A DNA stretch of 25,997 nucleotides from Acutalibacteraceae bacterium (GTDB lineage Bacteria; Bacillota; Clostridia; Oscillospirales; Acutalibacteraceae): NCBI GenBank assembly GCA_045224775.1, contig JBGVAQ010000374.1, positions 1 to 25,997 on the forward strand. The letters are read 5' to 3'. Positions 1 through 4,376 of this stretch are shown here, piece by piece; position 1 is the stretch's first letter, and the number at the start of each line of letters is the position of its first letter. The notes below the pieces were generated by a model. The model was given only the letters and a program-made list of their open reading frames with translations. It did not search any database and was not told the origin of the DNA. Both the position numbers and the translations under genes were made by a program.

Positions 1-607
1 ATACATTATTTGTAAATGTATCAATATCGCCCTCGATATTTACAAGTGTAGGCTCGCCTTCAAATGAAGGTATCGGGTTTCCGTCACACTTATATGTGTG
101 GATGAAATGTCCCTCGCCTGCAACCGGCTGTGCATACTCATAGAAGAAACGGAGTGCGGATTCCTCTCTGCCGCAGTTGCTTTTCAGTATGGAAAGCTTA
201 TATGAGAAATCGCCGTCTTTGAATTCCATTATACCTGAAATTCTCGGTGTGAAGTTCGGCGGATCAGGCTCAAAGGTTCTTGTTCTGAGTGCGTCCTCAA
301 AGGTCTTGCCCTCAAGCATGAAATCTCTTATTGTATCTGTCTGATCACCGTTTGTAACTATTGTTGCGTTTTCAAGTGTACGAACAGGAGCATAGATTAT
401 AAGTGAAGGATCAACAAGCTTTGAAGGATCGAAAGCCTGTGTTTTGAGGTCCTTTCCCTCTGCAACAAATACTCTGTTGCGGCTGTTTTCACTTCTGCCC
501 ATTATAAAATAGCCTGTTACTGCCTTTTTGCCGTCTGCACTTCTGCCGATGATGATTCCTCTGCCCGGATAGGTCGTTGAGGATATTTCTGCTGTAAGCT
601 CTGTCAT
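1..607 (-). CDS. purO: IMP cyclohydrolase, PurO-like (archaeal-type, Ntn-hydrolase fold); 3' end runs off the window
   Basis: Not in the ORF track, so translated by hand from ATG at 607 (RBS AAAGGA about 9 nt upstream): MTELTAEISSTTYPGRGIIIG...YFIMGRSENSRNRVF...DPSLIIY...IVTNGDQTDTI...FEPDPPNFTPRISG. The YPGRG, GRSxxSRNR, NGDQTD and EPDxPxxTPRI motifs are typical of the IMP cyclohydrolase-like family. It lies directly downstream of purN. Confidence 0.85.
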   Translation of the reverse strand, partial: MTELTAEISSTTYPGRGIIIGRSADGKKAVTGYFIMGRSENSRNRVFVAEGKDLKTQAFDPSKLVDPSLIIYAPVRTLENATIVTNGDQTDTIRDFMLEGKTFEDALRTRTFEPDPPNFTPRISGIMEFKDGDFSYKLSILKSNCGREESALRFFYEYAQPVAGEGHFIHTYKCDGNPIPSFEGEPTLVNIEGDIDTFTNNV

Positions 608-627
608 TTCATCATTTCCTTTCAATG

Positions 628-1254
628 TCAGTTTTTTATATATACTCTGTTATCTCTGACTTCAAGTCTGTCATCACAGAAAAGTGATACAGCCTGCGGA
701 AGTATTTTCCATTCAGCCTGTTCCATTATCCTTTTCTGGAGAGTTTCGGGTGTATCATTTTCCATAACTTCAACAGCCTTTTGAAGTATTATAGGCCCGC
801 CGTCACATTCTTCTGTAACAAAATGCACCGTTGCGCCCGATACCTTTACACCCTTTTTAAGTGCCTCTTCGTGTACTTTCAGACCATAGTATCCCTTGCC
901 GCAAAAGCTCGGTATGAGTGCCGGATGTACATTCATCATCCTGTTGGGATATGCTTTTACAACAAGCTCATCTATTATTGTCATAAAACCTGCATATACA
1001 ACAAGATCGGCTTTCTCCTCATTGAGAGCCTGCAAAAGTGCCTTGCTGTATTCTACAGCGTCGGGATATGCCTTTCTTTCAAGGACTCTTGATTTTATGC
1101 CGTGATTCTTTGCCCTTTCAAGAGCATATACTCCCGATTTTGATGATATCACGCATGTTATCCTGCCGTTTTTTATGATACCGCTTTCCTGAGCGTCTAT
1201 GAGTGCCTGGAGATTTGTTCCGCCGCCCGAAACAAGTACCGTGATATTTTTCAT
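628..1254 (-). CDS. purN: Phosphoribosylglycinamide formyltransferase
   Basis: VLVSGGGTNLQAL N-terminus, NVHPALIPSF, GATVHFV and DGGPIILQ motifs; pur operon context. Confidence 0.97.
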   Translation of the reverse strand: MKNITVLVSGGGTNLQALIDAQESGIIKNGRITCVISSKSGVYALERAKNHGIKSRVLERKAYPDAVEYSKALLQALNEEKADLVVYAGFMTIIDELVVKAYPNRMMNVHPALIPSFCGKGYYGLKVHEEALKKGVKVSGATVHFVTEECDGGPIILQKAVEVMENDTPETLQKRIMEQAEWKILPQAVSLFCDDRLEVRDNRVYIKN

Positions 1255-1276: not shown

Positions 1277-2314
1277 TCAGTATTCGATTATAACGCCCTC
1301 GCTGCTCTCAACAAGCTCACCGAGTACATAAGCTTCTTCGCCTGCTGCTTTGAGTACTTCGATAGCCTTATCAACATCAGCCTTATCTACAACTACTGTC
1401 ATTCCGACACCCATATTGAATGTGTTGAACATATCTCTTTCAGGAATATTTCCTGTCTTTGCGATAAGGTCGAATATCGGAAGAACCTGTACATCACTGC
1501 GCTTTATCTTTGCAGAAAGTCCGTCGGGAAGTGAACGCGGGATATTCTCATAGAATCCGCCGCCTGTGATATGGGAGATTGATTTTACCTTTACGCTTTC
1601 GATAAGCTTCATTACAGCCTTTACATATATTCTTGTAGGTGTGAGAAGTGACTCGCCGAGAGTTGTTCCAAGCTCATCATAGTACTGCTTTACAGTGTTT
1701 TCATCTATACCGAACACCTTGCGTACAAGTGAGAATCCGTTTGAATGTACACCGCTCGACTTTATGGCAAGCATTACATCTCCGGCTTTCTGAGTTTCCG
1801 GCTTGAGTATCTTATCCTTGTCAACAACACCTACTGCAAAACCTGCAAGGTCGTATTCATCTTCAGGCATAAGTCCGGGATGCTCGGCTGTTTCGCCGCC
1901 GATAAGTGCACATTCACTCTGTACACAGCCCTCTGCAACACCTGAAACTATCTTTGCCACCTTTTCGGGATAATTCTTTCCGATAGCGATATAATCAAGG
2001 AAGAACTGGGGCTTTGCACCACAGCAGATTATATCGTTAACGCACATTGCAACACAGTCGATACCTACTGTATCGTGCTTGTCAAGAAGGAATGCAAGCT
2101 TTATTTTTGTTCCTACACCGTCAGTTCCCGAAACCAGTACCGGCTTGTTTATACCTGTTGTATCTATCTCGAAAAGACCGCCGAAACCGCCTATTCCCGA
2201 AAGAACACCCTTTGTCATTGTCCTTGCGACATACTCCTTCATAAGCTCGACTGATTTATAGCCTGCGGTAACGTCAACGCCTGCCGCCTTATAGCTGTCA
2301 CTGTAGCTTTTCAT
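1277..2314 (-). CDS. purM: Phosphoribosylformylglycinamidine cyclo-ligase (AIR synthetase)
   Basis: [51 protein letters not shown] and TFNMGVGM motifs; RBS GGAGG. Confidence 0.98.
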
Positions 2315-2348: not shown

Positions 2349-3764
2349 TTATTCTTCTATTTTCTTCGAGTATTTATCTTCTCTTGTGGTATTGATAATT
2401 TCAAGAGGATAATTACCCGTAAAACATGCATCGCAGAAAGATATATTGCTGCCGCTGACTATCTCCTTCATACTTTCAAGAGAAAGAAATTCCAGTGAAT
2501 CCGCTCCCATATATTCACGCATCTGTTCGACACTCATATTTGAAGCAATAAGGTCATTCTTCTGTGTTGTATCGGTATTGAGATAGCAAGGACTTATGAA
2601 AGGCGGTGAAGCTACTCTCATATGCACTTCCTTAGCTCCTGCATTTCTCAGAAGCTCTACTATATGTTTGCTTGTCTTGCCTTTCAGTACAGAGTCATCT
2701 ATGACAATAACCCTTTTGCCGTCAACATTGCTTTTCAGCGCATTGAGCTTTATACGCATAAGGTATTCGTTGGTTTTCTTCCTGTCGTTAAATGCTCTGC
2801 CTATATATTTATTTTTGATTATGCCCGGTGCATAAGGTATGCCGGACTCCATTGAATAGCCTATTGCAGATTCTATGCCGCAGTCGGGTACTCCGCAGAC
2901 TATATCCGCATCAACAGGACAACTCTTTGCAAGCGCTCTGCCTGCCTGCTGTCTTGCGAAGTTTACGGACACACCGTCAACAACGCTGTCGGGACGTGAA
3001 AAATAAACGTACTCGAACAGGCAAAGTGCAGACTTTCCGCCGCAGTTCTTGTCATAGCTGTGAATACCGTCTTTGTCTATGACTATCATCTCTCCGGGAC
3101 GTACATCTCTTATAAATTCTCCGCCCATGCTGTCGAAAACACAGGATTCAGATGCTATTGCATAGCTTTTACCGACTTTTCCAAGGCAAAGAGGACGTAT
3201 GCCCATAGGATCACGCACTCCGATAAGCTTATTCGGCGCCATAAGAACAACCGAATATGCACCTTTCATACGGCTTACAGCATTCTCAACGGCTTCTTCA
3301 ATAGAGGACGCTTTTATTCTTGCCCTTGCGACAAGATATGCAATTATCTCTGTATCGCCGTATGACTGGAATATAGCTGCGCCGTGCTGAAGGTCGGTTC
3401 TCAGCTCGTTGTAATTCGTCAGTGCGCCGTTCATACACAGTGCAAGCTGACCTTTTATATATCTCATAACAAGAGGTGCAAGGTTTTCATGATTAACATT
3501 TCCGCCGGCAGAATATTTTACATGTCCTATGGCTATCTGTCCGTTTCCGAGCCTTGAAAGCTCACTTTCGGGCAAAGCTTCCGGTATCATGCCGAAATCC
3601 TTATAATATGTGATATTGCCGTCATTGCTCACGGCTATACCTGCTCCTGCCTGTCCTCTGTGCTGGAGAGCATAAAGTGAAAGGTAGGTTTCCTCTACTA
3701 TATTGATTGAATCATCGGCTGCAAATATTCCGAAAACACCACATTCATCGTGTAACTCAGACAT
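2349..3764 (-). CDS. purF: Amidophosphoribosyltransferase-family protein with divergent active-site motifs
   Basis: Propeptide plus CGVFG, QHRGQ, RDPxGIRPL, [13 protein letters not shown], and the Fe-S cysteines (CLFE, SPCY, CDAC). Several invariant residues are substituted (see findings). Confidence 0.9.
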
Positions 3765-3775
3765 AAATACACTCC

Positions 3776-4291
3776 TTACTTCCTGATAAGCTCTGCTACC
3801 TTTTCCTGAATCGCAGCATCTTTTTTCTCAACGCCGTTTTTCATAGCAATCTTTTCGTTTTCAAGCTTTTCTGCAAGAGAATCGTCTGAAAGTGCAAGCA
3901 TCTGAACAGCAAGTATTGCCGCATTATCTGCACCGTCTATTGCAACAGTCGCAACCGGTATTCCTTTGGGCATCTGTACTGTGGCAAGAAGTGCGTCAAG
4001 TCCGTCAAGAGTTGATGACTTTATCGGTATGCCAATTACAGGAATTGTTGTGTGAGCTGCAAGTACACCTGCAAGATGTGCTGCCTTGCCTGCTGCTGCT
4101 ATTATAACACCGAAGCTGTTCTTTCTTGCATTTGCAGAAAACTCTGCTGCTGCTTCGGGTGTTCTGTGCGCAGACATTACATGCACCTCAAACGGTACAC
4201 CATACTGGTCAAGTGTTTTAACAGCTCCCGATACTATTGGAAAATCGCTGTCGCTGCCCATGATTATCGCAACTTTTTTCTGTTCGGACAT
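3776..4291 (-). CDS. purE: N5-CAIR mutase / AIR carboxylase catalytic subunit
   Basis: [37 protein letters not shown] motifs; RBS AAAGGGGAG. Confidence 0.97.
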
Positions 4292-4311: not shown

Positions 4312-4376
4312 TTTTTTATTCCGGCGGCAAGCTGCCGCACTCATAGAGAACGCAGCCGTTCCGCAGAATACAAAAA
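4312..4376 (-). ncRNA. Candidate structured 5' leader (three-way junction) of the pur operon
   Basis: Minus strand: P1 UAUUCUG/CGGAAUA (extendable by U5/A5), P2 GAACG-GCUG-CGUUC, P3 GCGGCA-GCU-UGCCGC. It is a GC-rich island between the promoter and the purE RBS. Confidence 0.45.

Follow-up and report, generated by a model that had tools for sequence, protein, structure and literature searches.

The window analyzed here, a 25,997-nt stretch of contig JBGVAQ010000374.1 from an Acutalibacteraceae bacterium (assembly GCA_045224775.1), carries in a purine (pur) operon, here called operon B, a gene for a PurF-like protein, which we name purF-B. PurF catalyzes the committed, feedback-regulated step of purine synthesis and is a textbook case of substrate channelling. 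PurF-B is almost certainly a diverged PurF paralogue that is retained under selection beside a canonical copy, PurF-A, in the same genome. With a normal copy elsewhere in the genome, PurF-B has probably given up the usual glutamine-driven reaction in favor of an auxiliary role. The coordinates of all features are collected in Table 1.

To confirm that PurF-B belongs to the PurF family, the translated gene was compared with family models and solved structures. The reading frame lies on the minus strand, a point missing from the initial annotation, and is full length without internal stops; its product scored 445 bits against TIGR01134, the PurF equivalog model (cut-off 350; model positions 1-432). 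A phmmer comparison with Bacillus subtilis PurF (1AO0) gave an end-to-end alignment (E = 6.6e-125); the protein also aligned with Arabidopsis GPRAT2 (6LBP), and its identity to solved structures was 42%. The AlphaFold model, built from an input alignment of 80 sequences, reached a predicted local distance difference test (pLDDT) score of 89.4, and Foldseek matched it to 1AO0 with E = 1e-53 and template modelling (TM) scores of 0.88/0.91, as an N-terminal nucleophile (Ntn) glutaminase joined to a type I phosphoribosyltransferase (PRTase) fold. Low model confidence was limited to the propeptide, the C-terminal tail and flexible-loop residues 323-330 (pLDDT <50). Judged by model score, predicted fold, nucleophile and cluster ligands, PurF-B thus belongs with the PurF homologues of the B. 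subtilis [4Fe-4S] type.

The initial annotation of this gene had proposed a pseudo-enzyme, a regulatory subunit or a neofunctionalized paralogue next to a canonical PurF encoded elsewhere. This proposal is borne out in outline, and a search of the genome indeed found a second purF on contig C543, a 5.8-kb contig ending in purB. This gene, located between purC and purB, encodes PurF-A (P0002), which scored 523 bits against TIGR01134, is 51-53% identical to PurF-B and has every canonical motif (SHVRYST, AHNGNL, GRTFIKPTQ, DDSIVRGTT and CFYGTD). PurF-A in its purC-purF-purB setting is the housekeeping glutamine phosphoribosyl pyrophosphate (PRPP) amidotransferase of the organism. The remaining three weak PurF-like matches in the genome were GlmS/AsnB-type proteins. 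PurF-B is therefore not a sole, merely fast-evolving PurF, and the same holds across the genus: nearly all of the 24 other genomes searched hold a 73-79% identical orthologue of PurF-B plus a 51-53% identical canonical copy, and one or both copies were missing only from the most fragmentary of them. The metagenome-assembled genome (MAG) studied here consists of 563 contigs with an estimated contamination of 6.35%. Contamination as the source of the second purF was nevertheless ruled out, since high-quality genomes of the genus, some of them 99-100% complete and no more than 2% contaminated, contain both loci as well, and since the A and B copies of G000 are each closest to those of G018.

Several motifs of PurF-B differ from those of 1AO0. 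PurF-B reads GHVKYSA for GHVRYAT, NLAP for NVQP, CMNGAL for AHNGNL, VPDCG for VPDSS, DDSVLKGKT for DDSIVRGTT and CYLNTD for CFYGID, and its flexible loop is one residue shorter than the RYVGRTFIQPSQALREQG of B. subtilis PurF. These substitutions had been listed in the initial annotation by comparison with B. subtilis motifs; all of them are present, and the B. subtilis motifs given there agree with the phmmer alignment. Two further changes had escaped it, namely the loss of the Asp29 equivalent and the deletion of the Ile335 equivalent (Escherichia coli residue numbers are taken from an alignment to the MG1655 purF gene).

To measure how unusual these changes are, 134 full-length representatives of diverse PurF clusters were used as a yardstick, in which 65 columns are at least 90% conserved. 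PurF-B departs from the consensus at seven of them (Q96A, G129A, S295C, R332N, V360L, R361K and G396N in query numbering) and, among columns conserved at 80-89%, also at R83K, T324A and P327D. The median number of differences at the 65 columns was two in the background and one in the canonical copies of the family, and seven or more differences were found in 8% of the representatives. At six of the seven columns the residue of PurF-B was absent from all 134 sequences. This comparison shows that the divergence of PurF-B is real and beyond chance, and the substitutions are rare among diverse PurFs. The claim that many normally invariant motifs have been lost is somewhat overstated; several of the positions listed in its support are naturally variable, since the second Ser of VPDSS is Gly in most Clostridia and the His of AHNGN and the second Asn of NGN are conserved to only 75% and 57%, respectively.

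In the glutaminase half, the catalytic center is kept and its surroundings are altered. The Ntn nucleophile, Cys8, follows a seven-residue propeptide and does not vary among the 20 B copies of the genus; it had been reported as kept together with the propeptide, the four Fe-S cysteines and an intact frame, all of which is borne out by the 471-aa open reading frame (ORF). The oxyanion-hole Asn-Gly pair, the aspartate that binds the α-amino group of glutamine and the tyrosine equivalent to Y74 are also retained. The column of Arg73 is occupied by Arg in 119 of the 134 background PurFs and by Lys83 in PurF-B, and this lysine and Ala96 are fixed in all 20 species of the genus. The column of Asp29 holds Glu or Asp in 119 of the 134 background sequences and in 46 of 46 A copies, as against Val, Ile, Ala, Thr or Lys in the B copies of the genus. 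The E. coli residue N103 is replaced by Ala114. The equivalents of Asp29 and His101, as Mei and Zalkin reportedly found in 1989, are needed for the glutamine-dependent but not for the NH3-dependent activity.

In the PRTase half, the changes lie around the PRPP site. Within the flexible loop the equivalents of K326, Y329, R332, F334 and K349 are kept, whereas T333 has become Ala324, I335 is deleted, P337 has become Asp327, Q339 Lys329 and R342 Asn332. In the PRPP loop V370 is replaced by Leu360, R371 by Lys361 and T373 by Lys363, the last at a position that varies within the genus. The Cys of the pyrophosphate (PPi) loop is fixed in the genus and was also found in two related genera (G052 and G154). 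Other residues kept in PurF-B are the equivalents of R26, G27, P87, Y258 and D408, and the four Fe-S cysteines were present in every B copy examined and do not vary in alignment A1.

Published work assigns roles to many of the altered positions. R73 makes a salt bridge to the carboxylate of 6-diazo-5-oxo-L-norleucine (DON), a glutamine analogue, T333, F334 and R371 contact carbocyclic PRPP (cPRPP), and I335 and Y74 are part of the channel wall (PMC7953260). The R73 salt bridge is described as existing only in the active conformer, and R342, K344 and K349 are likewise described as contacting cPRPP. The channel arises when the flexible loop closes on PRPP, and the Asp, Asp and Ser of the PRPP loop are essential (PMC7056826). 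The second half of the loop, which in E. coli holds I335 of the ammonia-channel wall together with P337, Q339 and R342, is the part rebuilt in PurF-B. Because the signatures of PurF at the glutamine site (R73 and D29) and in the flexible loop (T333, I335, P337, Q339 and R342) are absent, PurF-B was filed as a diverged PurF paralogue and not as a demonstrated enzyme of EC 2.4.2.14.

The history of the two loci was reconstructed from one genome of each of 150 Acutalibacteraceae genera, followed by 60 further loci. A PurF-type match was found in 92 of the 150 genera, and two matches in about 30. Locus A has the order purC-purF-purB, often followed by glmS, and locus B the order purE-purF-purM-purN-purO, followed by AICARFT and purD. 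In a maximum-likelihood tree of 87 sequences, the locus-A copies of the family formed one clade and 33 locus-B copies another (Shimodaira-Hasegawa-like approximate likelihood ratio test (SH-aLRT) support 98). The A and B clades each repeat the same genus groupings, and the duplication is therefore older than much of the family. From its tree position and gene order, PurF-B is the copy that an old duplication of PurF in the Acutalibacteraceae left in the pur operon.

The basal B copies of other genera are orthologues of PurF-B, with the same purE-purF-purM position and the same clade, but with canonical motifs (GHVRY, N.QP, GRTFIQ(D/E)(T/S)Q, DDSIVRGTT and CYFGTD; genomes G073, G082, G089, G181, G118, G079, G115, G094, G084, G043, G047 and G058). 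Some of them already lack the Asp29 and His100 equivalents. The query falls into a subclade of 19 rows (SH-aLRT 99) with long branches and an erosion that is specific to each lineage: each has its own version of the loop's second half, R73 is Cys in G081 and G077, Ser in G137 and Lys in the query genus and G052, Y74 has become Asp, Asn or His, and D127 has become Asn in several lineages. The frame is open in all derived copies, and none has lost the DDS loop or any of the four Fe-S cysteines. An eroded B copy was never seen without a canonical A copy in the same genome, and the sole genome with B only (G079, 90% complete) has canonical B motifs. In four related genomes that carry A only (L118-L121, from G149, G176, G167 and G153) purE directly adjoins purM-purN-purO, which indicates that B was cleanly deleted; B is dispensable in this lineage. 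Across the family, B has had three fates: it stayed canonical, was lost, or diverged.

Some observations were made along the way on further PurF-like genes of the family. The purF-B orthologue of L104 (G137:C12) has Ser in place of Cys1, AHLSY for GHVRY and SNAE for SDxE, and is an intact ORF in a purE-purM operon; by these residues it would be the most clearly glutaminase-dead member of the B clade. A third PurF lineage with canonical motifs, separate from the A and B clades and outside both the purE-purM and the purC-purB contexts, was seen at L078, L091, L094, L097 and L110-L113; it occurs alongside a B copy in G118 and as two copies in G078. An apparent third PurF-like gene after purB (28-32% matches) was rejected, as these matches are N-terminal fragments of a GlmS-type protein of ∼609 aa that were cut by the locus ends.

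The rebuilt form of PurF-B has become stable again. The genus and two neighboring genera, G052 (67% identity) and G154 (61%), have in common the loop GRAF-N(N/D)RK(K/R)N.EYL, which is basic and one residue shorter, and K83, A96, A129, L360/K361 and N/T396 were gained stepwise towards the query genus. In 76 canonical copies of the order, 163 columns show a conservation of 90% or more. Of these, 25 carry a replacement in the B copies of the genus, and at 18 of the 25 a new residue is present in at least 90% of the 20 species. Within the genus, 57% of the columns of the loop region are invariant, compared with 44% for the whole protein. The ratio of nonsynonymous to synonymous substitution rates (dN/dS) against a 94% identical orthologue (dS 0.67) was 0.053 for purF-B, compared with 0.043 for purE, 0.029 for purM and 0.035 for purN, in line with the earlier suggestion that the fold is under selection. 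The genus-wide median was 0.072 for B and 0.056 for A, with a dN ∼1.5 times higher for B; as the genus-wide dS is saturated at 1.6-2.1, the weight was placed on the 94% identical pair. PurF-B evolved at ∼1.5 times the rate of A within the genus and at ∼2.5 times on the stem branch. As far as codon substitutions tell, the query clade is re-stabilized and not decaying, and is under strong purifying selection, which rules out a pseudogene.

Taken together, these results show the following course of events. In the derived subclade, PurF-B was released from the constraints on the canonical enzyme and its glutamine-site residues (equivalents of D29, R73, T76, Q86 and H100) drifted, and in the genus and its two nearest genera the loop was rebuilt into its conserved, basic and shorter form. 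The protein is expected to fold, to process itself and to carry an Fe-S cluster like PurF. Binding of a phosphoribosyl or nucleotide ligand is probably retained, as the DDS loop and the equivalents of K326, R332, Y258 and K349 are kept and R371 is conservatively replaced by Lys. Elements that link PRPP binding to glutamine hydrolysis and close off the channel are missing, and passing glutamine nitrogen to PRPP in the loop-gated, channel-coupled manner would be beyond the protein. The independent scrambling of the loop in the sister lineages, always beside an intact PurF-A, suggests that the subclade shares a function for which glutamine-coupled catalysis is not needed. Our tentative first choice is that PurF-B is an accessory or regulatory partner in the purine pathway whose own glutamine-coupled catalysis would be slight or absent, possibly acting as a subunit of mixed oligomers with PurF-A or as a PRPP- or nucleotide-sensing partner that is produced together with PurD. 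A stricter version, in which PurF-B would be a true pseudoenzyme and an obligatory regulatory or assembly subunit, joining PurF-A in mixed Fe-S tetramers or PurD in a complex while its basic loop senses PRPP or nucleotides, we consider rather unlikely. If it were true, this would be a natural example of an allosteric homo-oligomeric enzyme that gained a dedicated non-catalytic partner through duplication.

Several observations weigh against an accessory role. The genus keeps the core of both half-sites (C1, R26, N101, G102, D127, Y74, Y258, K326, R332, D366, D367 and S368), and the N-terminal domain is constrained as much as the PRTase domain. The exchange of Arg for Lys at two ligand-binding sites is conservative and the rebuilt loop is conserved, which fits a still-active enzyme, and the operon also encodes PurD, the consumer of phosphoribosylamine (PRA). 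As A and B are only ∼52% identical, mixed oligomers are not assured, and the outright loss of B in one lineage means that A can, in general, do without it. The sister copies that look dead may, moreover, differ in function from the copy of the genus.

The most serious competitor to an accessory partner is an uncoupled PRA synthase, which would use free ammonia, or glutamine poorly, to supply PurD in the ammonia-rich rumen, possibly under a feedback control different from that of PurF-A. It is possible, if somewhat doubtful. It would account for the retention of the PRPP-binding core and of the first half of the loop (K326, Y329, R332 and F334), for the conservative nature of the Lys at R371 and likewise at R73, for the core catalytic residues retained in the genus, and for a dN/dS of 0.05 with the glutaminase domain constrained as much as the PRTase domain; purD stands in the same operon, and the source is the bovine gut. 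E. coli Cys1 mutants retain NH3-dependent activity, and the same role has been proposed for archaeal PurF' (PMC3261824). It fits less well with the loss around the PRPP site of the equivalents of T333, I335, P337, Q339 and R342, of the Gly of YGxD and of the Ser of the PPi loop. A loop that is hypervariable among the sister lineages is hard to square with a common PRTase catalysis, and Cys1, the Asn-Gly pair and Asp127 are fixed although an enzyme that uses ammonia only would not need them. That PurF-B is instead an ordinary glutamine-dependent isozyme, with substitutions that reflect tolerated lineage-specific drift, is improbable. The protein passes the TIGR01134 cut-off and has the PurF fold, basal genera have two canonical PurFs side by side, so that possession of a second isozyme is ancestral, and the 8% of cluster representatives mentioned above are equally or more divergent at conserved columns. 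Against this, R73, D29, T333, I335, R342, R371 and an invariant Gly are altered together, the residues at six of the seven top columns have no counterpart in the 134 diverse PurFs, and erosion occurs only where PurF-A is present, going as far as Cys1 to Ser in one sister copy.

Two other explanations are given even less credence. In a new chemistry, the glutaminase domain would pass its nitrogen to a different acceptor, phosphoribosyl or other, in a rebuilt PRTase site. The changes do cluster near the acceptor site, with new residues that have become fixed (C295, the basic loop, L360/K361 and N/T396), and the glutaminase domain has kept its nucleophile and oxyanion hole. On the other side, no new partner gene has joined what is otherwise a standard pur operon, the D29, H100 and R73 equivalents of the glutaminase domain are altered too, and the sister lineages decay without a common new motif, so that this explanation appears quite improbable. 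A functionless, decaying gene or an artefact of assembly or contamination, for which the fragmented state and estimated contamination of the MAG could be cited, is refuted by selection and synteny and is thus very improbable indeed: more than 20 species have an intact ORF, with a dN/dS of ∼0.05, high-quality genomes show the same two-locus layout, the branching of the species is followed by both the A and the B copies, and purF-B lies within contigs of metatranscriptomes.

PurF-B was further compared with known systems. With the B. subtilis-type PurF (EC 2.4.2.14; 1AO0/1GPH; GPRAT2 6LBP) it has in common the two-domain fold, the propeptide and Cys1, the Asn-Gly pair, Asp127, the four Fe-S cysteines, the DDS PRPP loop and the location in a pur operon; it differs in the glutamine site, the PPi Ser, the second half of the loop, V370/R371 and the Gly of YGxD (Asn or Thr). 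A literature search for bacterial PurF paralogues found none of the PurF-B kind; the only relevant paper describes archaeal PurF', a Cys-less second copy beside purF that was proposed to be ammonia-dependent (Brown et al., 2011; PMC3261824). Like PurF-B, PurF' is a second PurF-like gene beside a real purF and is linked to purine genes, and both are named amidophosphoribosyltransferase in databases. The two are otherwise the reverse of each other, as PurF' has lost the N-terminal Cys and the glutamine site and kept the PRPP site, whereas PurF-B has kept Cys1 and the oxyanion hole and rebuilt the lid of the PRPP site. The membership features of PurF' are absent from PurF-B, which has the Asn-Gly pair, Asp137 and a Cys8 that is fixed in the genus, and in the tree, from which PurF' sequences were left out, it is nested in an otherwise canonical pur-operon PurF clade (SH-aLRT 98) and does not form a separate deep clade. 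By these sequence features PurF-B is not a member of the Cys-less PurF' family. ORFs of 469-487 aa with ∼30% identity that cover both domains (query 84-431) were noted at G028:C3:284560-285624, G040:C17:99273-100256, G036:C56:71649-72638, G039:C6:41724-42734 and G031:C122:25246-26298, and in G036, G039 and G031 they are the only PurF-like match; these are possible members of the Cys-less PurF' family.

In other pathways, catalytically degenerate paralogues act as partners of their active relatives, among them HisZ with HisG and the PRPP-synthetase-associated proteins. By analogy, PurF-B would resemble this class as the duplicate of an oligomeric enzyme in which the fold and a ligand site are kept, catalytic detail is lost and the active copy co-occurs. 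The family provides a natural series of one paralogue, from canonical through an eroded glutamine site and a scrambled loop to a loop that was rebuilt and re-stabilized, which could reveal what the PurF scaffold can do without channel-coupled catalysis and which loop residues are truly needed. There is also a practical side, since annotation pipelines and metabolic models call both genes 'amidophosphoribosyltransferase'; where only the B copy is assembled, the pathway would be called wrongly in Acutalibacteraceae from the rumen and gut.

Table 1. Positions in the window of the operon B genes and of the diagnostic sites of PurF-B (residues in query numbering unless marked E. coli).
Feature	Position	Strand	Evidence
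purF-B (diverged PurF paralogue, 471 aa, P0001)	2349..3764	minus	TIGR01134, phmmer, AlphaFold, Foldseek
purE, first gene of operon B	3776..4291	minus	TIGR01162, 190 bits
purM	1277..2314	minus	TIGR00878, 444 bits
purN	628..1254	minus	TIGR00639, 207 bits
PurO-type inosine monophosphate (IMP) cyclohydrolase, truncated by the window end	2..625	minus	PF07826
Cys8, Ntn nucleophile (E. coli Cys1), behind the 7-aa propeptide MSELHDE; kept	3741..3743	minus	
Ala39 at the E. coli Asp29 position, acidic residue lost	3648..3650	minus	
Glutamine loop: R73 to Lys83, T76 to Ala86, Q86 to Ala96; Tyr84 (Y74) kept	3477..3518	minus	
M111-N112-G113: oxyanion-hole Asn-Gly kept, preceding His (E. coli H100) to Met	3426..3434	minus	
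Asp137 (E. coli Asp127, binds the α-amino group of glutamine); kept	3354..3356	minus	
PPi loop VPDCG: Ser (E. coli Ser/Thr304) to Cys295, column 93-100% Ser	2877..2891	minus	
Rebuilt PRTase flexible loop (E. coli K326-L350)	2745..2816	minus	mapped to E. coli numbering
PRPP loop: D366, D367, S368, G372 and T374 kept (query D356, D357, S358, G362 and T364)	2673..2699	minus	
CYLNTD for C(F/Y)(F/Y)G(T/I)D: 99%-conserved Gly to Asn396, Fe-S Cys393 kept	2571..2588	minus	
[4Fe-4S] ligand C248	3021..3023	minus	
[4Fe-4S] ligand C393	2586..2588	minus	
[4Fe-4S] ligand C444	2433..2435	minus	
[4Fe-4S] ligand C447	2424..2426	minus	

Upstream of operon B the window contains mcsA, mcsB and clpC. In a 94% identical relative, operon B runs on after purO with a stand-alone AICARFT and purD, followed by groES/groEL. 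The MAG splits this operon, as contig C374 stops within purO and contig C396, which carries AICARFT and purD of the same genome, begins in AICARFT; with the operon on two contigs, gene-content calls for this fragmented MAG need care. A large purL lies on contig C253, and the remaining genes of the purine pathway are present in the genome. The final two purine steps are encoded by the PurO-type cyclohydrolase and a separate AICARFT-only gene (L115 9157-11075), with no fused PurH; this split PurO/AICARFT arrangement has been discussed previously (PMC6486802).

No riboswitch ahead of purE, purC or their orthologues, nor any other Rfam family, was found at the gathering threshold in the window or in L001, L115, L035 and L007. 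Contigs from four bovine-gut metatranscriptome libraries span purN to purE with 99-100% identity, which suggests that purF-B is transcribed with the operon, although carry-over of DNA into such libraries is possible. These contigs end at ∼4352-4356, ∼65 nt upstream of the purE start, a position that would fit a transcript 5' end with a short leader. An orthologue of PurF-B with 61% identity is annotated in the cultured species Pseudoruminococcus massiliensis, which makes experiments feasible.

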